Shown in pieces: positions 4,937 to 61,106 of a DNA stretch of 64,000 nucleotides (its first letter is position 1; every line of letters begins with the position of its first letter). The translations under genes were made by a program, and so were the position numbers. The stretch is from Candidatus Woesearchaeota archaeon (GTDB taxonomy: Archaea; Nanobdellota; Nanobdellia; Woesearchaeales; DSVV01): NCBI GenBank assembly GCA_038884615.1, contig JAWABL010000001.1:57837-121836 (forward strand). The letters are read 5' to 3'. The notes under the pieces are model-generated. The model worked only from the letters and a program-made list of their open reading frames with translations. It was not told where the DNA came from and made no database searches.

Positions 4937-7900
4937 TTAATATTCATCCCATGCTTTAATCTCCAGGTCCTCCAGTCGTGTCTTTGAAATTGCATCAACA
5001 AAAAGCTTGGTCAAACTTGTATCTGTAAGAAGAGGGACTGCATGGTCCACTGCTTTCCGTCTTATAAGATACCCATCTGTCACCGCTTCTCTTTTTCCAT
5101 GGTCTGGTATCATTATAACAAAATCAAGCTGTTTTTTTTCTATCATTGTGAGTGCATTTTCTTTTTGTGTGTTGTGCGCTTTTAATACCATCTGGCACAC
5201 AAGCCCATTTTTTCTTAGAAACTCAAATGTATGCTCTGTAGCAAAAAGATTAAATCCCATCGCATAAAGCTTTTTTATAGAATCTAAAAGGCGAAATTTG
5301 TTCTCCTCGTCGCTTATGCTCAAAAGCACATTCTTCTTAGGAAGCTGCAATCCCGTCGCAAGTATGCTTTTTAAAAACGCACTATTAAGATTATCTCCAA
5401 GGCACGCCACTTCGCCTGTTGAGGCCATTTCAACTCCTATAATCGGATCTGCCATCTTAAGTCGCGTAAAGGAAAACTGTGGTGATTTAACTCCGACATA
5501 GTCCATGTCAAGAGTAGATATTCCATACCTTACCTTCTTGCTTAGCATTGCCCTCACGGCAAGATCTATAAAGTTTTGCTTTGAAACCTTTGAAACAAAC
5601 GGAAAGCTTCTAGACGCCCGAAGGTTACATTCTATAACTTTTATCTCATTTTCTTTTGCGAGGTATTGTATATTGAATGGTCCTGTAATGTTAAGCGATT
5701 GCGCGATCATCTGTGTTATTTTTTTAACTCGCCTTGCGGTTTCAAGATAGGTGTTGTTTGGCGGAAAGATTATTGTCGCGTCACCGCTATGTACCCCTGC
5801 TTTCTCAACATGCTCTGACAATGCCCAAATAACAATGCTGCCATTTTTTGCCACTGCATCGACCTCTATTTCCTTGGCATTCCTAATAAACTTGCTTATT
5901 ACAACAGGATGCTCCTTGTTGACCTCGGCTGCATTCGAGAGATATTCTTTAAGTTCAGAATCATTGGCTGCGACACGCATTGCCGCACCGCTCAAAACAT
6001 AACTAGGTCTAACAAGGACAGGATAGCCGACTTTTTGCGAAAATAGTTGTGCGTCGTCAAGATTCGTAAGCTCTTTCCATTCCGGCTGGTCTACGCCAAT
6101 TTCGTCAAGAAGTTTTGAAAACTTGTATCTGTCTTCCGACCTGTCTATATCTTTTGGATGAGTACCTATAATTTTTGCGCCTGCAAAATGAAGCTTTAAA
6201 GCAAGATTGTTTGGTATCTGTCCACCCATAGAAATTATTATCCCATCTGGCTGCTCCTTATCATAGATGTCCATCACAGATTCTATTGAAAGCTCGTCAA
6301 AATACAATCTATCGCATATATCATAGTCTGTGCTAACAGTTTCTGGATTGTAATTTATCATTATTGTTTCATAGCCCAGCTTCCTTAAGCTTATCACTGC
6401 GTTTACACAGCACCAGTCAAACTCTACAGAACTACCTATCCTGTATGCTCCGCTTCCAAGTACTATAACGCTTTTTCTGCGACTGAAAGTCACATCGTCT
6501 TCGCTCCCATTATATGTCAAATAAAGATAGTTTGTCTTTGCCGGATATTCTGCGGCAAGAGTATCAATTTGCTTTATGCATGGCAGAATACCAAAAGATT
6601 TTCTTTTTTCTTTCACTTCCTTCGCTTGACATCCAAGACATATCCCTATTTGTTTGTCTGAAAATCCGCGGCTTTTTGCTTTAAGAAAAACCTCCCTATG
6701 CACAGTCTCAAGAGTGTACTGCCTTAGCTCTTTCTCTGTATTTACAATATTAGATATTTTATGTAAGAACCATTTGTCAATTTTTGAAAGGGAGTATATT
6801 TGATCAGTGCTATAACCTTGTTTAAGCGCCTGGGCAATCGCAAAGACTCTTTCATCGGTAGGATTTGCAAGCTCTTCATCGATGTCCTTACATAGGATAT
6901 TATCATTACAGACAACTCCATTTGCTCCTATCTCAAGCATTCTAATTGCCTTTTGAAGCGCCTCTTCAAACTTTCTGCCTATCGCCATGACTTCTCCAAC
7001 AGACATCATACTGGAGCCTATTTTCTTGCTTACCCTAACAAACTTTTTTAAGTCCCATCTTGGAATTTTGACAACACAATAGTCAAGCGCAGGTTCAAAA
7101 CATGCCGTGGTTATTTGTGTGATTGAATTTCTCAGCTGAGTCAAAGTATAGCCAATAGATAGCTTTGCCGCAATGAAAGCAAGTGGATACCCAGTAGCTT
7201 TTGAGGCTAGTGCAGAGCTCCTGCTAAGCCGCGCGTTTACCTCTATAACTCTATACTCGCTGTTTTTTGGGTTTAATGCAAACTGGATATTGCATTCGCC
7301 GATTACTCCAAGATGACGAATTGCCTTTATCGAGACCTCTCTTAGCATATGATACTCGTAATTTGTTAGTGTCTGGCTTGGGGCAACAACTATACTTTCT
7401 CCGGTATGTATCCCCATAGGGTCCATGTTCTCCATGTTACAGACAGTTATGCAATTATCCATACGGTCCCTCACAACCTCATACTCTATTTCCTTCCATC
7501 CATGAAGGTACTCTTCAACAAGTAACTGTTGTGTGTATGAAAATGCTTTACTTAGCATATCCTTTAGTGATTGCTCATTGTATGCAACACCAGAACCAAG
7601 ACCGCCAAGCGCATATGCAATCCTTACCATTACTGGATAACCTATCCTTTGTGCAATTTCTATCGCCTGGTCTATATTTCTAGCTGCTTCGCTTCGTGGG
7701 GTTTTTACACCAATTTCATCAAGTTTTCTTACAAAAAGTTCCCTATCTTCTGTATCAATTATGGTTTTTACAGGTGTTCCCAGCACCTTCACATTGTTTT
7801 TTTGTAAAATACCTGAATTATAGAGCTCTACGCCACAGTTAAGCGCGGTTTGACCTCCAAAAGAAAGAAGTATCCCATCCGGCTTTTCCTTTTCGATTAC

Positions 7901-11274: not shown

Positions 11275-11432
11275 GAGGGAGTGCCGGAGTGGCCAAATGA
11301 AGTCTTTATGATTTCAGGCTATACGGGACAGACTCAAGATCTGTTGGCTCAGTGCCTACTAGGGTTCGAAAGAAGCATCGGCAAACAAACAGCGCAATTG
11401 CGCCGTGCTTGGCGAACATCCCTACTCCCTCA
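11275..11432 (+). tRNA. tRNA-Leu (anticodon CAA) with two probable non-canonical introns (D-loop and T-loop)
   Basis: 7-bp acceptor GAGGGAG/CTCCCTC + discriminator A; anticodon arm ACAGA-CUCAAGA-UCUGU (11327..11343); long variable arm; T-stem TAGGG...CCCTA with TTCGAA T-loop interrupted by ~50 nt; 158 nt total versus ~87 nt mature. Confidence 0.7.
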
Positions 11433-11435
11433 ATT

Positions 11436-12542
11436 TCAATTATTTTTTCTTTTTATCCTAAGAAAATCAAACTTCTGTTTTCCTTGCCAAACTGATTTTT
11501 CAGAAACAAGCAAAAAATTCTCAGACTCTAAAAGCATTTTTTTCAGGAGCATGCTGTTTTGTAGGCATACTGCGATTATGCCATCCTTTGTAAGCACAAA
11601 GTCTGCTTGATAGAAAAACTCGCGGTATAGGTTCTGCAACTCTTTCTCGCCGGTTGTTTTTGAAGGCGATGGTGGATGAGTCACTAGTTTATCAACACTT
11701 CCTTTAGAAATCTTTGTATCAAGCCATTCAACATCTACTTTTGAGAAGGTGATATATTTATCAACGCCGGCAATTGCCGCGTTTTTTCTTGAGGAGGTTA
11801 TAAACCTAAGCTGATTGTCATAGCCAATTATACTTTCTTTAGATATTGGTGTAATTCTTTTATCCTTAGGAATCTTACAGATAAATTTTTCTTTTTTAAA
11901 AAAATGAGGAGAAATTCCTGTTGCGAAGAGCGCGGCTTCAATAGGAATTGTCCCAGCCCCGCAAAAGGGATCTAGGAGAACCCCATTTTTTTTATAGCCA
12001 GAAAACCGCATGAGTGAGTATGCTGTTATCGCGCTTAGTGTTGAAGGATGGGAAAAAACTTTATAGTCTCTTTTAGAGAGATCAAAACCGGCAAAATCAA
12101 TCCCTGTTAAACAGCGTGAATTATTAATATAAACAAGCACAACACAATCTGGTTGTACAAGACTTACTTTTGAGCCAACCAACTGTGCGATTATCTCTCC
12201 AACGCCTGATGCAATGTCCTGACTTGAATAATCATGAGCGCCTTCTCTTATACAGTTTACTCTGAAGGTTTTTCCTTTAATAGCAGAAACCGCATTCGTG
12301 TTCAATATCTGCTTTATTGATACAATCGACTCTTCAAGGTTATTATTAACACTACACTCTCCAATAACTCCAATGACATTTAATGCTGAGTGGGCATTGT
12401 ATGCAAGAGTACATATCTCATTTGCATCAGCTTCAAAAAAAACAACTTTTTCTGTAATTATAGAGGGTTTTTTTAGGATTTCTTTTATTTCAAGCGCTGT
12501 AAACTCCTCAACTCCCTGTTCTGTAAATACTGCTGATTTCAT
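11436..12542 (-). CDS. THUMP-domain RNA methyltransferase (Trm14/RlmL-like tRNA m2G methyltransferase)
   Basis: 368 aa; N-terminal THUMP-like region followed by Rossmann methyltransferase with DPFCGAGT (motif I) and THPPSP (motif IV, DPPY-like) as in N2-guanine/N6-adenine methyltransferases. Confidence 0.6.
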   Translation of the reverse strand: MKSAVFTEQGVEEFTALEIKEILKKPSIITEKVVFFEADANEICTLAYNAHSALNVIGVIGECSVNNNLEESIVSIKQILNTNAVSAIKGKTFRVNCIREGAHDYSSQDIASGVGEIIAQLVGSKVSLVQPDCVVLVYINNSRCLTGIDFAGFDLSKRDYKVFSHPSTLSAITAYSLMRFSGYKKNGVLLDPFCGAGTIPIEAALFATGISPHFFKKEKFICKIPKDKRITPISKESIIGYDNQLRFITSSRKNAAIAGVDKYITFSKVDVEWLDTKISKGSVDKLVTHPPSPSKTTGEKELQNLYREFFYQADFVLTKDGIIAVCLQNSMLLKKMLLESENFLLVSEKSVWQGKQKFDFLRIKRKNN

Positions 12543-16129: not shown

Positions 16130-17815
16130 ATGGAAGAAAAATCCTTCTTTGAAAATATAAGGATAGCATACTTCAGTATGGAGATTGGGATTGACGATAG
16201 AATTCCTACATATTCAGGCGGACTTGGTGTTCTTGCAGGCGACACTTTAAGAAGCGCGGCTGATCTTGGGATTCCGATGGTCGGAGTGAGCCTGCTCTAC
16301 AAAAAAGGCTACTTCAAACAAAGAATAACAAAAAAAGGAGAACAGATAGAAGAGGAAGTTGTATGGGAACCGAGCAAATTTCTTAAACAGCTAGATACAA
16401 AAGTTATGGTTAAAATAAGAGAAAGAGTGGTTTGGATAAAACCCTGGTTGTACACAATCAAAGGCACAACTGGAAAAGAGTTACCTATAATCTTTATGGA
16501 TACTGATATCGCAGAGAACACACCTTACGACAGAACATTAACTCATTATCTCTATGGTTACGATGAAGAGTACCGTCTGTGCCAAGAGGTTGTGCTTGGA
16601 ATTGGGGGAGTAAGGATGCTTGAAAAGATAGGCTGTAAGAACATAAAAAAATATCACATGAACGAAGGGCATTCAGGCTTGCTGGCCATTGAGCTTTGCA
16701 GAAGATACGGCAAGAGAGATGACTGCATAGAGAAAGTGAGAGAACAATGCGTGTTCACCACACACACGCCAGTGCCTGCGGGCCACGACCAGTTCAACAA
16801 AAATTTTGCAATAGATATCCTTGGAGAAAATCTGCCAGAATGGCTCTACAACAAGGTTTTTTTCGAAGACCGGCTTAACATGACATACTTAGGCCTTATT
16901 TTTTCAAAATATATAAATGGGGTTGCAAAAAAACATGGCGAGGTTGCACGGGGCATGTTTCCCGGCTACCATATAGAATCCATAACAAACGGCGTGCACA
17001 CTGCATTCTGGGCATCGCCTTATATGAAACAACTTTTTGAAAAGTATATCCCAGAATGCTTGTGCGACCCATTTAATTTGAGATATATAATGAGTGTGCC
17101 GAAAAAAGAGGTGTGGGATGCACATAAAAAAGCAAAAGCCGAGCTTATAAGGTTTGTAAATGAAAACTACAATGTCGGCATGGACGAAGAAGTGTTTACA
17201 ATAGGATTTGCAAGGCGTGCGGCCACATACAAGAGAGGTGACTTGCTGTTTAGCGACATCGGCAGATTAATTAGAATCGCAGAAAAAACAAAAGGCTTGC
17301 AAATTATTTATTCTGGCAAAGCGCATCCAAAAGATACTGGTGGAAAAGAAGTTATAAGACGCATAATAGAAGCCATGCAACAGCTGGAAAATAAAATAAA
17401 AGCGTGTTATATTGAGGATTACTCAATCAAAATCGCAAAGTTGCTTGTGGCAGGCGTTGACCTATGGGTTAATACTCCGCAACGCCCAATGGAAGCATCA
17501 GGAACATCTGGAATGAAAGCAGCGATAAACGGCGTACCGCAATTTTCCACCTTGGATGGATGGTGGCTTGAAGGACATATAGAAAATGTTACAGGGTGGA
17601 GCATTGGAATCCATCCAAACCAAAAAAAGGAAAGCGAACAAGCAGAAGATGTACTTGATTTTTACAGAAAGCTTGAACATGTTATTCTTCCAAAATATTA
17701 CAACGAAAGAGATAATTGGATTGAAATAATGAGACACGTAATCGCATTGAACGGCTCATTTTTCAACACTCACAGAATGCTGCAACAATATGTTCTTAAT
17801 GCTTATTTTAAGTAA
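16130..17815 (+). CDS. glgP: alpha-glucan (glycogen/maltodextrin) phosphorylase, short archaeal GT35 form
   Basis: 561 aa; N-terminal AYFSMEIG...YSGGLGVLAGD motif and pyridoxal-phosphate Lys motif EASGTSGMKAAINGV. Confidence 0.85.
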   Translation: MEEKSFFENIRIAYFSMEIGIDDRIPTYSGGLGVLAGDTLRSAADLGIPMVGVSLLYKKGYFKQRITKKGEQIEEEVVWEPSKFLKQLDTKVMVKIRERVVWIKPWLYTIKGTTGKELPIIFMDTDIAENTPYDRTLTHYLYGYDEEYRLCQEVVLGIGGVRMLEKIGCKNIKKYHMNEGHSGLLAIELCRRYGKRDDCIEKVREQCVFTTHTPVPAGHDQFNKNFAIDILGENLPEWLYNKVFFEDRLNMTYLGLIFSKYINGVAKKHGEVARGMFPGYHIESITNGVHTAFWASPYMKQLFEKYIPECLCDPFNLRYIMSVPKKEVWDAHKKAKAELIRFVNENYNVGMDEEVFTIGFARRAATYKRGDLLFSDIGRLIRIAEKTKGLQIIYSGKAHPKDTGGKEVIRRIIEAMQQLENKIKACYIEDYSIKIAKLLVAGVDLWVNTPQRPMEASGTSGMKAAINGVPQFSTLDGWWLEGHIENVTGWSIGIHPNQKKESEQAEDVLDFYRKLEHVILPKYYNERDNWIEIMRHVIALNGSFFNTHRMLQQYVLNAYFK

Positions 17816-18023
17816 TTTGAAAGCAAAAATTGTTCCTTAATTGTCCTAATAACCCTCTACAACCATTTATTCCTTGGATAAGTTATAACTTAAAGTAGTA
17901 AAAATAACTTGCAGAGACTGAATAGAAAGCTTAGGGAATGCAACACTAAATTTTTATAAGGGATATATTTTCAATATTTCTTTGTATTAATATTTAGGAT
18001 ATAATACAGCAAATGTAGATGCG

Positions 18024-18034
18024 AGCTTATAAAA
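18024..18034 (+). promoter_or_regulatory. putative TATA box for tRNA-His
   Basis: CTTATAAAAAG 28-38 nt upstream of the tRNA 5' end. Confidence 0.35.
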
Positions 18035-18061
18035 AGTATCTGTAAAGGGCATGATTTTTTT

Positions 18062-18211
18062 GGCGGCCATGGTGTAGCCCGGTAGCATAAGGGACTGTGG
18101 ATCCCTTGGGCCGAGTTCAAAAAGCATTTTGCAAAAGATACGTCGACATAGCAGGGCAATCTTTTTGTCTGGGTTAAGAGTGCAATGGCTTTGAAAGTCT
18201 CGGTGGCCGCC
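18062..18211 (+). tRNA. tRNA-His (anticodon GUG) with encoded G-1 and a ~75-nt intron in the T-loop
   Basis: G-1 pairs with C73 (His identity); acceptor GCGGCCA/TGGCCGC; D-arm GUGU-AGCCCGGUA-GCAU; anticodon arm AGGGA-CUGUGGA-UCCCU; T-stem CCGAG...CTCGG with GTTCAAAA then ~75 nt inserted before the 3' T-stem strand. Confidence 0.75.
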
Positions 18212-18301
18212 CTTTTAACTTTTTTGGCCTTGCATGCTTAAAAATGCGCAAGAGAACAGCCATATAATAAAACTATAAAAAGATTATAAGAGGAATTTAA
18301 A

Positions 18302-18481
18302 TGGACCTGGAGGGATTCGAACCCTCGACCCCCAGCTTGCTTCTGGTTTAGAAGGCTGGTGCCCTATGTTCCCAGTCAAAGCAGTGCTGAAGCTTCCCAG
18401 CTTACTTTCCTGCTACTTATTTAAATTTTAGACAATTCTTGTTGTCTAAAAAAAAAGACCGCCAGGCTAGGCTACAGGTCC
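18302..18481 (-). tRNA. tRNA with a ~95-nt D-loop intron and a short canonical intron (anticodon most parsimoniously UCU, Arg)
   Basis: minus strand: acceptor GGACCUG/CAGGUCC + A73; T-arm GAGGG-UUCGAAU-CCCUC; D-stem GCCU/GGGC; anticodon stem CCAGC/GCUGG enclosing CUUCUA + 11 nt; the large insert contains a perfect 9-bp hairpin (TTTAGACAA...TTGTCTAAA). Confidence 0.6.
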
Positions 18482-18710
18482 AAAAATTGCAAATATAAAA
18501 ACATTAACTCTGGTATTTGATTCAATATATAAAATTTTATAAAATAACTAACATTAATTTTGAATATTTAATATTAAGCGATTAATAAACAATAAAATTG
18601 CCAAGCAAAAAACAAGGGTATATAAATAACATGAATTTTTTGCTTGTTAAAGATTAAAAAGCATTAACAATAAAAGTTATAAAAATTAAGAAGATATAAA
18701 CAAAGAAAAT

Positions 18711-18833
18711 GCGGGGGTAGCCAAGCGGCTAAGGCGATCGGCTGCAGCAGGTGCTGTAAAAAGCGGTATTATGAGCGTTATGCGATGAAATGAAGATACC
18801 GATTATTCGAGGGTTCAAGTCCCTCTCCCCGCT
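18711..18833 (+). tRNA. tRNA (probably Cys, anticodon GCA) with ~50-nt intron at the canonical 37/38 position
   Basis: acceptor GCGGGGG/TCCCCGC; T-arm GAGGG-UUCAAGU-CCCUC; anticodon stem AUCGG...CCGAU enclosing CUGCAG + ~50 nt; TATA GTTATAAAAAT ~30 nt upstream. Confidence 0.65.
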
Positions 18834-19257
18834 CTTTTTATAATAAATAGTAAAAGAGAAAACTATACAAATAATCCAAGACAAGAATTCTTATCCTTTG
18901 TTTTTGTCTTTAGTTGTGAAGGAATATTCTTGACCACATTAGCAATAACATGTGGTTTTAACTCTGAAAAATCTGTTAGCCTTGAATTTTTTTTACCTGC
19001 ATTGTAGGAGACCGGCATTTTGATATTCCTTTTTATTATTCTTTTTAAATATTTTCGTAGTTTAAAATATATATTAATATATTATTTAATATACTAAAAC
19101 GAAAAATATTTAAATTTATTTTATTATAATTCTGAAAATCTGAAATTATAACAAAATTTTCATATAAAAAAATTGAAATTCATATATTTTTTATGAATAT
19201 CAGAAAAAGAGAGATAAGCTACAATTTTAGCAATTAAGTCTTTAAAAAGAGGAGCAC

Positions 19258-19548
19258 ATGAAAAAATATCCTAAAATAGTTCAATGCGACAGCAGAGGAC
19301 AGATTGTTATCCCAAAAGATATACGACGGGAATTGCAAATAGATGAATGGACTGGTTTTTTTATGTATTCTATCCAAGGAGAGGGCATACTTCTAAAAAA
19401 GATAGCTGCAGAAGAACTTGCTGTACATAAAGAGATGCTACAAGAAATTAAAGACAAAGCTGCAACATTGGGCATTAAAAACGAGAATATTGATATTGCT
19501 ATAAAGAACTATAAAAAAACAAAGGAGGGCAACTTGGAAGTGTTATGA
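19258..19548 (+). CDS. AbrB/SpoVT/MazE-family swapped-hairpin DNA-binding protein
   Basis: N-terminal VQCDSRGQIVIPKDIRRELQID matches the AbrB-type looped-hinge-helix motif; 96 aa; stop overlaps start of next gene (ATGA). Confidence 0.6.
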   Translation: MKKYPKIVQCDSRGQIVIPKDIRRELQIDEWTGFFMYSIQGEGILLKKIAAEELAVHKEMLQEIKDKAATLGIKNENIDIAIKNYKKTKEGNLEVL

Positions 19549-24444: not shown

Positions 24445-25170
24445 ATGAAGATGCTTGTTGGATGGGATGGAAGAAAATTTTTTTTTAGTGGCAAAGACAT
24501 CCACACAAAGAATGGTTTTATCAGGAAGGAAGAAATTGAGGCGGCGCGAGAAGGAAGCATTTTAAAGACTAACATTGGTCATGAGATGTTTGTTGTTGAA
24601 GCATCGTTTGTTGATGTATTCAAAAGGATAAAAAGGTCGCCACAGATAATTCCGCTGAAAGATATAGGGCTCATAGTTGCAGAGACGGGCATAGGCAAAA
24701 AAAGCGTTGTTCTTGATGCAGGTAGCGGAAGCGGAGCGACTGCGTGTTTTATAGCAAACATAGCAAAAAAAGTTTATACTTACGAAATAAGAGACGATTT
24801 TTATAAAATAGTCAAGGAAAACATCGCGCGATTAGAATTAAAAAATGTTGTTGCAAAAAAAGGGGATGTTTACAAAAAGATAAACGAAAAAAATATTGAT
24901 GTTATAATTCTTGATCTTCCATCTCCTTGGGAGGCAATTGAAACCTGCAAAAAATCACTTAAGATAGGTGGGTTTCTTGTTAGCTATTCTCCTACGGTTC
25001 CACAAGTGGCGGATTTTGTTTCGGCGATCAAAAGTAATAGCTCATTCATATTTCTAAGAACTATTGAGGTTATTGAAAGGGACTGGGAGTATGAAGGAAG
25101 AAAAATAAGACCGAAATCTCAGCAAATAGGACATAGCGGTTTTTTAACATTCTGCAGAAAGATACATTGA
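24445..25170 (+). CDS. trmI: tRNA (adenine57/58-N1)-methyltransferase TrmI
   Basis: 241 aa; SAM-binding LDAGSGSG and DLPSPW catalytic motif of the TrmI/Gcd14 family. Confidence 0.7.
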   Translation: MKMLVGWDGRKFFFSGKDIHTKNGFIRKEEIEAAREGSILKTNIGHEMFVVEASFVDVFKRIKRSPQIIPLKDIGLIVAETGIGKKSVVLDAGSGSGATACFIANIAKKVYTYEIRDDFYKIVKENIARLELKNVVAKKGDVYKKINEKNIDVIILDLPSPWEAIETCKKSLKIGGFLVSYSPTVPQVADFVSAIKSNSSFIFLRTIEVIERDWEYEGRKIRPKSQQIGHSGFLTFCRKIH

Positions 25171-44597: not shown

Positions 44598-44698
44598 TTA
44601 GGTGACCCTGCATCAGCACGGGCCAGGCGAGCGTTTATAAGTTGTGTAATTTAAACAAACAACAAGGTATATATAAGGATCATCTGTTCTTTTGTTTT

Positions 44699-45610
44699 AT
44701 GAAATGCGTAAAATGTAATAGAAAAGCGGTGTTTCTAAGACCAAGCTATTGCAAAACACATTTTCTCGCGTATATAGAAAAAAAGGTTATGGACACCATA
44801 AAAAGATACAGGCTACTAGAGAAAACAGGAAAGGTTATAGTTGCCGCATCGGGCGGGAAGGACAGCATCAGCTGTGCATACATACTAAAAAAACTGGGGT
44901 ATAATATTGAGGTGCTAGCTATTGACGAGGGCATTGCCGGTTACAGAAACCACACGATTTCTGACCTGAGACGATTCTGCAAAGAAAAGAAAATAAAACT
45001 TAATATTATAGATATTGGTAAAACAATGGGAAGGGGGTTAGATTCGCTAGTTAAAGAAAGTGGGCTTGGTGCGTGTACATTATGCGGTGCGATACGAAGG
45101 TATGCAATAAATAGGTGGGCAAAAAAGTTAGGAGCATGTGTTGTGGCAACAGGACATAATCTTGATGATGAGGTACAAGCAATTATGATGAATTTTTTAA
45201 GAAATAATCTCGCGTTCTCAGCACGCATAGGGCCTGTCACTGGACTAAAAAACAATCAAGGGTTTATAAGAAGAGTTAAACCTCTTTATCTTTGCACAGA
45301 GAAAGAAATTGCTGCGTATGCGTTTTTGCGTTCTTTCAGAATTGGGTATAACATCTGCCCATACACAAATACTTCTTATAGATATCACATACAAGAGCTA
45401 TTAAATGATATTGAAAAAAAAATTCCAAACACCAAAAAAAACATCATAAATAATTTTTTAAGCATACTCCCAATACTAAAGAAGAGATATGAAACAAAGG
45501 AAGGCGCTAATATCTGCAAGAGTTGCGGTGAACCTTGTAGCAAGAGCGTATGTAGAGTGTGCAGTATTCTCGCAAAAAATTTAAATAAACCGTCGGTATC
45601 TGCTTACTAA
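44699..45610 (+). CDS. ttuA: tRNA 2-thiolation protein TtuA/NcsA family (PP-loop ATPase with N- and C-terminal zinc fingers)
   Basis: SGGKDS PP-loop; CxxC N-terminal finger; Fe-S-ligand Cys (CTLCGAIRR ... GHNLDDE); C-terminal CKSCG...CRVC; start moved to ATG at 44699. Confidence 0.75.
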   Translation: MKCVKCNRKAVFLRPSYCKTHFLAYIEKKVMDTIKRYRLLEKTGKVIVAASGGKDSISCAYILKKLGYNIEVLAIDEGIAGYRNHTISDLRRFCKEKKIKLNIIDIGKTMGRGLDSLVKESGLGACTLCGAIRRYAINRWAKKLGACVVATGHNLDDEVQAIMMNFLRNNLAFSARIGPVTGLKNNQGFIRRVKPLYLCTEKEIAAYAFLRSFRIGYNICPYTNTSYRYHIQELLNDIEKKIPNTKKNIINNFLSILPILKKRYETKEGANICKSCGEPCSKSVCRVCSILAKNLNKPSVSAY

Positions 45611-46185
45611 TGTATTGCGATATTGTGTTTCCAAAAAATAATGAACGCGAGTTTCTGCAAGTTGCGAGGTTTTTAGGTTATGAAAAACTAGTCTTTGTAT
45701 ACGAAACTGCGCCAATCAATATTCCAAAAGAGAATGGTGCCGTGGTGGTTTTTGGTGCATCTACAAAGCAAAAGCCAAAATGGGCGGAATACCTAATTCT
45801 GGAATCTACTGGAGACGACAGAAAAACGATTGAAACTCTGCGTCCGGAGATAATATATGGTTTTGAAACAAAAAATACCAAGGACGGCCTGCATTATAGA
45901 AATTCTGGCTTAAACCATGTTCTTTGCGCCCTTATGAGAGAGAATAATGTGGCTTGCGGGTTTTCACTTAGCGCATTGATAAACCACAAAAATAGGCAGG
46001 TTTTGCTTGGAAGGATGAAACAAAATATAAGACTCTGCAGAAAGTTCGGAGTGAAGCAGGTAATAGCAAGTTTTAGCGACGAGCCTATGGCAATGCGTGC
46101 GCCACGCGACATTATTAGCCTTTTTGTGTGTTTAGGTATGGAAAGCGGCGAAATAAAAAATGCGTTAAGATGCTTTCAAAAATGA
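45610..46185 (+). CDS. rnp3: RNase P protein component 3 (Rpp30)
   Basis: 191 aa; GLNHVLCALM..NVACGFSL and APRDIISL...LGME motifs match archaeal Rpp30 (e.g. Pyrococcus PH1877); TAATG overlap with ttuA. Confidence 0.65.
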   Translation: MYCDIVFPKNNEREFLQVARFLGYEKLVFVYETAPINIPKENGAVVVFGASTKQKPKWAEYLILESTGDDRKTIETLRPEIIYGFETKNTKDGLHYRNSGLNHVLCALMRENNVACGFSLSALINHKNRQVLLGRMKQNIRLCRKFGVKQVIASFSDEPMAMRAPRDIISLFVCLGMESGEIKNALRCFQK

Positions 46186-60829: not shown

Positions 60830-61106
60830 TATGCGGGCACACTCCAGAATGGACTTTGCTAGGCTGCATCAGTTTAACCTCGGTACCTTCTCAGTTCCGC
60901 TACCCTGTAAGCACCTGACGACTTAGTTAGTACTGCTCCATTCCTGGCCTGATACCTTTCCCAAGACGCCGATCCTACAGGACAGAACTTCACAGTTGGA
61001 ACCAAGACTGGTGAAACACAGCAATGCCTCTTCTGGAGTTTCGGTCCCATCATATAGCCCATCTATGGTGACAGGAGAGGGCTAACCTCCCGACCTAGCC
61101 CGCAGT
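60830..61106 (-). ncRNA. ffs: signal recognition particle RNA (7S/SRP RNA)
   Basis: minus-strand 5' end UGCGGGCUAGGUCGGGAGGUUAGCCCUCUCCUGU closely matches archaeal SRP RNA Alu-domain start (GGGCUAGGCCGGGGGGUU...UCCCCUGU as recalled); terminal helix UGCGGGC/GCCCGCA; domain-IV-like GUCAGGUG...GGAA...GAUGCAGCC; ~277 nt; TTTTTAAAA TATA ~25 nt upstream; T-run after 3' end. Confidence 0.7.

Follow-up and report, generated by a model that had tools for sequence, protein, structure and literature searches.

The stretch of DNA analysed here, 64 kb from the genome of a Candidatus Woesearchaeota (DPANN) archaeon and hereafter called the window, carries at positions 18062-18833 a cluster of three tRNA genes: tRNA-His(GTG), tRNA-Arg(TCT) and tRNA-Cys(GCA). 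We are highly confident that all three are functional and that each is split by one or two archaeal introns of the bulge-helix-bulge (BHB) type. The BHB signal that we sought consists of two 3-nt bulges on opposite strands, a 4-bp helix (H) between them and flanking helices h and h', with the cut falling after the second nucleotide of each bulge (marked ^ in the motifs given below).

The tRNA-His(GTG) gene lies on the plus strand and runs from 18062 (G-1) to 18211 (C73), with exon 1 at 18062-18121 and exon 2 at 18198-18211. G-1 is encoded in the genome opposite the discriminator C73, and the CCA end is not encoded. The intron (18122-18197, plus strand, 76 nt) falls in the T-loop between positions 59 and 60 (TTCAAA^T), and the BHB search returned a strict hBHBh' motif at its boundaries, with h GCCGAG/CTCGGT, H TTCA/TGAA and bulges AA^A and AG^T. 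ARAGORN identifies the spliced product as tRNA-His(gtg). The same 59/60 site, together with an intron ending in ...TGAAAG^T, is also found in other tRNAs of relatives.

The tRNA-Arg(TCT) gene occupies 18302-18481 on the minus strand and has three exons (18462-18481, 18349-18367 and 18302-18337). Its first intron (18368-18461, minus strand, 94 nt) interrupts the D-loop at 19/20, between G19 and A20. The BHB of this intron combines h CCTA/TAGG with h' GGTC/GACT, has bulges GG^C and AC^A, and contains a single G.A mismatch in H (GCCT/GGGA); once the intron is excised, the D-arm reads GCCT-AGCCTGG^ATA-GGGC. The second is a mini-intron of 11 nt, AACCAGAAGCA (18338-18348, minus strand), at the canonical position 37/38. 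By inspection of the sequence, its H (CTTC/GAAG) is perfect, its bulges are TA^A and CA^A, and where h' would stand there is a 4-nt loop. With both introns removed in silico, ARAGORN calls tRNA-Arg(tct). The same program, applied to the unspliced minus-strand gene with introns allowed, proposed Lys(ttt) with a 101-nt intron, which we rejected as a forced single-intron artefact: this reading requires an aberrant D-arm and a long variable region, whereas the two-intron Arg(TCT) gene matches intronless orthologs exactly.

The tRNA-Cys(GCA) gene spans 18711-18833 on the plus strand (exons 18711-18747 and 18798-18833, discriminator U73 at 18833) and holds an intron of 50 nt (18748-18797, plus strand) at the canonical position 37/38. 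Its BHB is relaxed: h is GATCGG/CCGATT, H (CTGC/GAAG) contains a single G.A mismatch, the bulges are AG^C and AT^A, and h' measures only about 1 bp. The unspliced gene scores 47.9 bits with the Rfam tRNA model, aligned with a 53-nt anticodon-loop insertion, and the spliced product is called Cys(gca) by ARAGORN. Across the cluster, splicing restores the cloverleaf and an intact anticodon, and the identity elements G-1/C73 (His) and U73 (Cys) are present. BHB inspection, which had been suggested as a check when the introns were first proposed, found motifs ranging from strict to relaxed at the boundaries in all three genes. We found no RTGATGA or CTGA motif of C/D-box guide elements in any intron, and a search at permissive thresholds, covering 17600-19300 as well as the whole window, gave no Rfam match for group I or group II introns or any other known RNA inside the introns. 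Enumerating excisions with ARAGORN was rejected as a sole means of placing the junctions; because the program accepts hundreds of excisions, both BHB geometry and the gaps against orthologs are needed to fix them.

Comparison with intronless orthologs is the decisive part of the case. A metagenome contig (Ga0209381_1000512, 91 kb, 46% GC; hereafter L014) carries at 4952-7258 a His(+)/Arg(-)/Cys(+) cluster in the order and orientation of the window, with all three genes uninterrupted. These genes are recognised by ARAGORN in default mode and score 54.9 (His), 67.3 (Arg) and 59.7 (Cys) bits with Rfam. In MAFFT alignments, the window genes differ from them by single, clean gaps at the predicted sites, of 76 nt in His, 94 and 11 nt in Arg and 50 nt in Cys. 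The spliced window products align with the L014 genes ungapped, at 68/74 (His), 71/75 (Arg) and 67/73 (Cys) identical positions, and stem changes are compensatory at His 27:43 (A-T to G-C), Cys 31:39 and Cys 49:65. The agreement of the spliced products with both the ARAGORN calls and ungapped, Rfam-positive orthologs lies far beyond chance. As a separate observation, the proteins flanking the L014 cluster are unrelated to those of the window, so that the tRNA cluster was kept (~92% exon identity) and its surroundings were not.

The anatomy agrees closely with the original prediction, which had described a tRNA-His with encoded G-1 and a T-loop insert of ~75 nt, a minus-strand tRNA with a D-loop insert of ~95 nt and an 11-nt canonical intron, and a third tRNA with an intron of ~50 nt after position 37. 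The BHB motif and the L014 gap set the His intron at 76 nt; those of Arg measure 94 nt at 19/20 and 11 nt at 37/38, and that of Cys 50 nt at 37/38. Its tentative assignments of the second and third genes to Arg and Cys were right, as shown by the ARAGORN calls of the spliced products and by the intronless syntenic orthologs. It was to be abandoned if the loci proved to belong to non-tRNA families or could not form cloverleaves; the spliced products are called as tRNAs and the intronless orthologs score 54.9-67.3 bits with the Rfam tRNA model.

A wider view of the Arg(TCT) gene came from a metagenome scan with its internal exon, TAGGGCACCAGCCTTCTA, which is bordered by both introns; the scan returned 34 loci. 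About 15 of these genes measure 75 nt and have no interruption; their sequences, ...CTGGA-TAGGGC... and ...TTCTA-AGCTGG..., show exactly the junctions predicted here. The remaining loci have inserts at 19/20 (14-97 nt), at 37/38 (11-53 nt), at 59/60 or in the variable loop at 46/47; inserts are confined to a few discrete sites and never lie within stems. At Arg 19/20, five unique orthologs and one duplicate copy hold an unrelated intron of 14-97 nt with the BHB conserved. Six D-loop introns have no sequence in common, yet each retains h, H and its two 3-nt bulges, and h' differs wholly between them but stays complementary. Their BHB pairing occupies 89.7% of cells versus 25-50% in slid controls, and the covariation score is 0.415 versus at most 0.055 in controls, a value attained by none of 500 shuffles; in h', both sides changed in four of five pairs. 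Overall, the sites 59/60, 19/20 and 37/38 are hot-spots at which unrelated introns are rapidly gained and lost in related genomes.

Several of these loci show further features. The tRNA-Arg(TCT) genes of L032 and L042 carry a 29-nt insert in the variable loop (~46/47), a site that is unused in the window. Two tandem tRNA-Arg(TCT) genes stand 189 nt apart at L035:6513-6800, on a contig of 56% GC, the first apparently with a T-loop insert. The tRNA-Arg at 4941 of L042 is preceded, at a distance of ~100 nt, by two tandem repeats of ~38 nt, each with a copy of the tRNA 5' end (GGACCCGTAGC...), which look like duplicated attachment-site scars of integrating elements. Disruption in relatives extends to tRNA-Val(CAC), which has D-loop and 37/38 inserts at L007:9836-9969, immediately upstream of a phosphorylase gene; its ortholog at L009:9738-9919, also upstream of the phosphorylase, has the same two kinds of insert plus an extra T-loop insert of 33 nt, and the D-loop intron of one gene is 86% identical to that of the other. 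A scan of contigs for synteny through the phosphorylase that flanks the window cluster yielded merely 51-54% identical matches in unrelated contexts, and in relatives with a ~65% identical phosphorylase the tRNA cluster does not adjoin that gene.

To survey the window as a whole, two purpose-made, intron-agnostic tRNA detectors were applied, one built on the T-arm and a 7-bp acceptor stem, with the 5' strand of the stem allowed at any distance upstream, the other on the 5' acceptor strand and D-arm with a distal acceptor complement. They recover His, Arg and Cys plus a tRNA-Leu(CAA) gene (11275-11432, plus strand) that both Rfam and ARAGORN miss. The latter holds two introns: one of 26 nt in the D-loop (11297-11322, plus strand), with a relaxed HBh' motif (H GGCC/GGCT, a 7-bp h' TGAAGTC/GATTTCA and no adjacent outer helix), and one of 48 nt at 59/60 in the T-loop (11371-11418, plus strand). 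With both removed, the 84-nt product is a class-II Leu(caa) cloverleaf according to ARAGORN. In total, the window contains four tRNA genes and six introns, four of the latter non-canonical, and no uninterrupted tRNA gene was found in its 64 kb; the claim that the tRNA-Leu is real and that every tRNA here is split is upheld. So is the claim that simple finders do not see these genes, because ARAGORN in default mode detects 0/4, its introns-allowed mode mostly fails (Cys(gca) with its 50-nt intron is correct, Arg is miscalled Lys(ttt), and His and Leu are missed), and at the gathering threshold of the Rfam tRNA model Cys alone passes.

On the archaeal pathway as reviewed (PMC4090602, PMC4033280), processing can be pictured as follows. 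Each gene would yield one precursor from an upstream TATA-type promoter, and each exon-intron junction would fold, as sequence and covariation both indicate, into two 3-nt bulges with a 4-bp helix between them. The splicing endonuclease EndA would cut after the second nucleotide of each bulge, and the ligase RtcB would join the exons and probably circularise the intron. RNase P would leave the encoded G-1 on tRNA-His, and CCA would be added post-transcriptionally, since none is encoded in the gene. Candidate promoters fit this outline in part. A putative TATA box, TTATAAAA, lies at 18027-18034 (plus strand), ending 27 nt before G-1 of tRNA-His, and an identical putative octamer, again TTATAAAA, at 18677-18684 (plus strand) stands 26 nt upstream of tRNA-Cys. 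Similar putative octamers precede tRNA-Leu (TTTAAATA, at 24 nt) and the L014 tRNAs (TTTATAAA, at ~25 nt). For tRNA-Arg, we found no TATA box at the usual spacing of -25 to -33.

Some observations weigh against three functional, BHB-spliced genes. Excision, ligation and intron circularisation are steps that we infer from the established pathway, and neither EndA nor RtcB was found among window ORFs (open reading frames) of at least 110 aa outside the ribosomal-protein operon. One G.A mismatch sits in the H of both the Cys and the Arg D-loop motifs, and the Arg D-loop intron contains, on its sense strand, a run of nine T residues (T9). The BHBs are not exactly reproduced in unconstrained minimum free energy (MFE) folds: that of His has an AAAGC/GCUUU helix competing with H, and in that of the Cys precursor (18735-18812) the 3' splice site is spanned by a helix of intron CGGUAUU with GAUACCG, a predicted pairing that takes the place of the anticodon stem and would need to be undone for EndA to cut. 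MFE folding was set aside as uninformative evidence on the BHB: competing helices dominate, and the z-scores range from -2.2 to +0.5. Finally, our view covers 64 kb, and intact duplicate genes may exist elsewhere in the genome.

This last point bears on the idea that the loci are decaying pseudogenes, interrupted by junk or mobile DNA, with functional intact copies elsewhere in the genome. The failure of standard finders on these loci, the 64 kb in view, AT-rich inserts that are unrelated among orthologs, and an Arg gene with no TATA box at the usual spacing could all be cited for it. We nevertheless regard it as highly unlikely: a BHB is present at every insert and its h' covaries across orthologs, the exons are 90-95% identical to intronless orthologs with changes that are compensatory and not disruptive, and the inserts keep to few discrete sites and never enter stems. 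Moreover, all four window tRNAs and the tRNAs of relatives are alike affected, and a lineage-wide processing capacity therefore fits better than decay. Even less credence, close to none, is due to assembly or binning artefacts producing chimeric joins. The source is indeed a metagenome-assembled genome (MAG), yet dozens of contigs, assembled independently in different projects, have inserts at matching tRNA positions, BHB motifs bound the inserts to the nucleotide, and the gene context is continuous and coherent.

The Arg D-loop intron calls for separate treatment, since the T9 run, a hairpin and a TATA-like octamer within it, together with the missing upstream TATA box, suggested a cis-arranged split tRNA: the 5' part would end at T9, the 3' part would start from the internal TTTAAATA, and EndA and RtcB would join the two in trans. 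Transcription from adjacent units would be at least partly separate, and the gene would be a split tRNA caught at birth. All three elements read on the minus strand. T9 (18448-18456) follows the h' strand GGTC without a gap, beginning 5 nt past the 5' splice site; the hairpin (18426-18451) is the perfect 9-bp hairpin noted in the original prediction and can be extended to 10 bp; and TTTAAATA (18418-18425) matches the TATA octamer of tRNA-Leu letter for letter, with the 3' h' strand ~40 nt further downstream, and is of a kind expected only 0.05 times by chance per 94 nt. Oligo-T runs of this sort are a terminator signal in well-studied archaea, tRNA-Arg has no promoter at normal upstream spacing, and each of the two putative transcripts would include a complete BHB half. 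Against this, sense-strand T8/T9 runs also lie within the Pfam-supported window genes for SecY, TrmI, a radical-SAM protein and SPP, and such runs therefore cannot terminate efficiently here. The combination of T9 and TATA is missing from the orthologous L019 and L030 D-loop introns, which have T5-T6 runs. Trailer-leader complementarity amounts to 4 bp (the h' helix only), and in known split tRNAs it reaches 12-14 nt. The halves are contiguous and co-oriented, so that read-through yields a normal cis substrate. We judge a cis-split tRNA-Arg improbable, if somewhat less so than decay; the three elements could mean partly separate transcription and are probably incidental. Were it true, the gene would represent, in a living organism, a stage between tRNA genes with introns and split ones. 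Window-wide, T7-T9 runs are ~3x commoner on the antisense than on the sense strand of ORFs, and T8-T9 sense runs are still present within clearly real genes; in this lineage, termination at oligo-T may be weak or depend on context.

For the preferred reading of three functional genes with BHB introns, the nature of EndA matters. The original prediction took the non-canonical introns to imply a broad-specificity enzyme and gave the epsilon2 and heterotetrameric types as examples, which is not supported as worded. The relevant sections of Kaneta et al. 2018 (NAR 46:1958, PMC5829648) describe an alpha4-type EndA that carries an L3 loop, occurs across diverse DPANN lineages and is linked to a higher degree of disruption of tRNA genes, and they place epsilon2 EndA in the ARMAN-1/-2 and Mancarchaeum group only and (alpha-beta)2 EndA, within DPANN, in Nanoarchaeum (N. 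equitans) only. Because DPANN EndA is there reported as alpha4 with L3, an epsilon2 or heterotetrameric EndA is probably not right for this lineage. Nor does intron position alone demand relaxed specificity, as the His BHB is strict and that of the Arg D-loop intron has one mismatch. The relaxed motifs are those of the Leu D-loop intron (HBh', no outer helix), Cys (G.A in H, weak h') and the Arg 11-nt mini-intron (no h'); they therefore make some broadening of EndA specificity plausible. In the window itself, no tRNA_int_endo domain was detected with Pfam in 40 ORFs (those of at least 110 aa outside the ribosomal-protein operon), and phmmer with an approximate M. jannaschii EndA sequence, a weak test, gave no window match.

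The introns are AT-rich, and an all-against-all blastn of 38 introns, run for intron-to-intron homology as a sign of transposition, returned just orthologous pairs and two marginal matches of 10-14 nt. The hexamer TTTTGC is ~5-fold enriched in 35 non-redundant introns (8 observed versus 1.65 expected from its window frequency), and seven of the ten occurrences of the pentamer TTTGC start 5-8 nt past the 5' splice site, often in a hairpin of a T-run with an A-run. A TTTTGC(A/G)AAAA-like element appears in D-loop and T-loop introns of the window (18122-18197), L009:9738-9919, L019, L026, L029 and L030, and the introns bearing TTTTGC come from different tRNAs and different genomes. In a weaker companion to the reading of tRNA-Arg as a split tRNA caught at birth, an element of this type may be the hallmark of a family of mobile introns or a site bound by a protein.

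The surroundings are those of an ordinary archaeal chromosome. Archaeal markers in the window include the signal recognition particle (SRP) RNA (60831-61105, minus strand; Rfam RF01857, 159.9 bits), PolD, Cdc6 and a ribosomal-protein operon; the flanks hold carAB, a THUMP methyltransferase, Nre, CorA, a glucan phosphorylase and SecY. PolD is represented by its small and large subunits, and further genes encode pyrimidine biosynthesis enzymes and a class I aminoacyl-tRNA synthetase of the Trp/Tyr family. The gene for the THUMP-domain methyltransferase (11436-12542, minus strand) lies directly downstream of tRNA-Leu on the opposite strand, and the window also holds genes for a GCD14/TrmI-type m1A58 methyltransferase (24445-25170), a PP-loop ATPase (44642-45610) and the RNase P subunit p30 (45610-46185).

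Overall, the phenomenon is a known kind of tRNA gene disruption that has already been reported in DPANN, and it leaves the picture of archaeal tRNA splicing unchanged. Its significance lies partly in annotation: all four tRNA genes in a 64-kb window are missed or miscalled by common tools, save Cys when introns are allowed. Apparent 'missing tRNAs' in Woesearchaeota and other DPANN MAGs therefore largely reflect intron disruption, not real gene loss, a point relevant to estimates of completeness and to any claim of host dependence based on such MAGs. In addition, the intronless L014 cluster set against the four-intron cluster of the window (~92% exon identity), together with ~30 Arg(TCT) orthologs that have unrelated introns at three or four common sites, offers a clean natural series for the study of BHB intron gain and loss at hot-spots outside Thermoproteales.

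Among known systems, the nearest to the Cys intron and the 11-nt Arg intron are canonical archaeal introns at 37/38, such as those of euryarchaeal tRNA-Trp and tRNA-Met, whose hBHBh' motif was reportedly set out by Marck and Grosjean in 2003. The two introns share that site, nucleotides 32-35 of the anticodon loop form H, and the cut falls after the second bulge nucleotide. They depart from the canonical form in that the Cys H has a G.A mismatch with almost no h' and the Arg mini-intron has a 4-nt loop in place of h', and unlike the euryarchaeal tRNA-Trp intron, the introns here have no C/D-box guide elements. Split and tri-split tRNAs, as in Nanoarchaeum equitans and Caldivirga maquilingensis, offer a second comparison: EndA and ligase would unite the pieces by the same BHB-based chemistry, and the Arg D-loop intron carries terminator-like and promoter-like elements between the exons. 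Unlike in split tRNAs, the Arg pieces are contiguous and co-oriented at one locus, with no long complementary leader or trailer sequences, and separate transcription of the parts is unlikely.

Within DPANN, Kaneta et al. (PMC5829648) added four genomes to their tRNA set, one of them a Candidatus Woesearchaeota, and, in the same sections of that paper, incomplete predicted tRNA sets are taken to imply disrupted genes still undetected. What those sections offer is genome-level proportions, and their text is without the genes, intron positions, BHB anatomy and presence/absence polymorphism given here. A further close parallel lies in the Thermoproteales, where BHB introns likewise occupy the D-loop, T-loop and variable region as well as 37/38 (Sugahara 2007/2008, Fujishima 2010, via PMC4033280). 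There too, a gene may hold as many as 2-3 introns, related genomes gain and lose them rapidly, and ordinary finders miss the genes (PMC4033280). There are differences. Beyond the short TTTTGC motif, the introns here form no clear sequence families of the kind that point to transposition in Thermoproteales, and the EndA reported for DPANN in the sections of PMC5829648 cited above is alpha4 with an L3 loop, versus (alpha-beta)2 with a crenarchaeal loop in Thermoproteales. The host also differs, being a mesophile-like, AT-rich (39% GC) DPANN archaeon and not a hyperthermophilic crenarchaeon.

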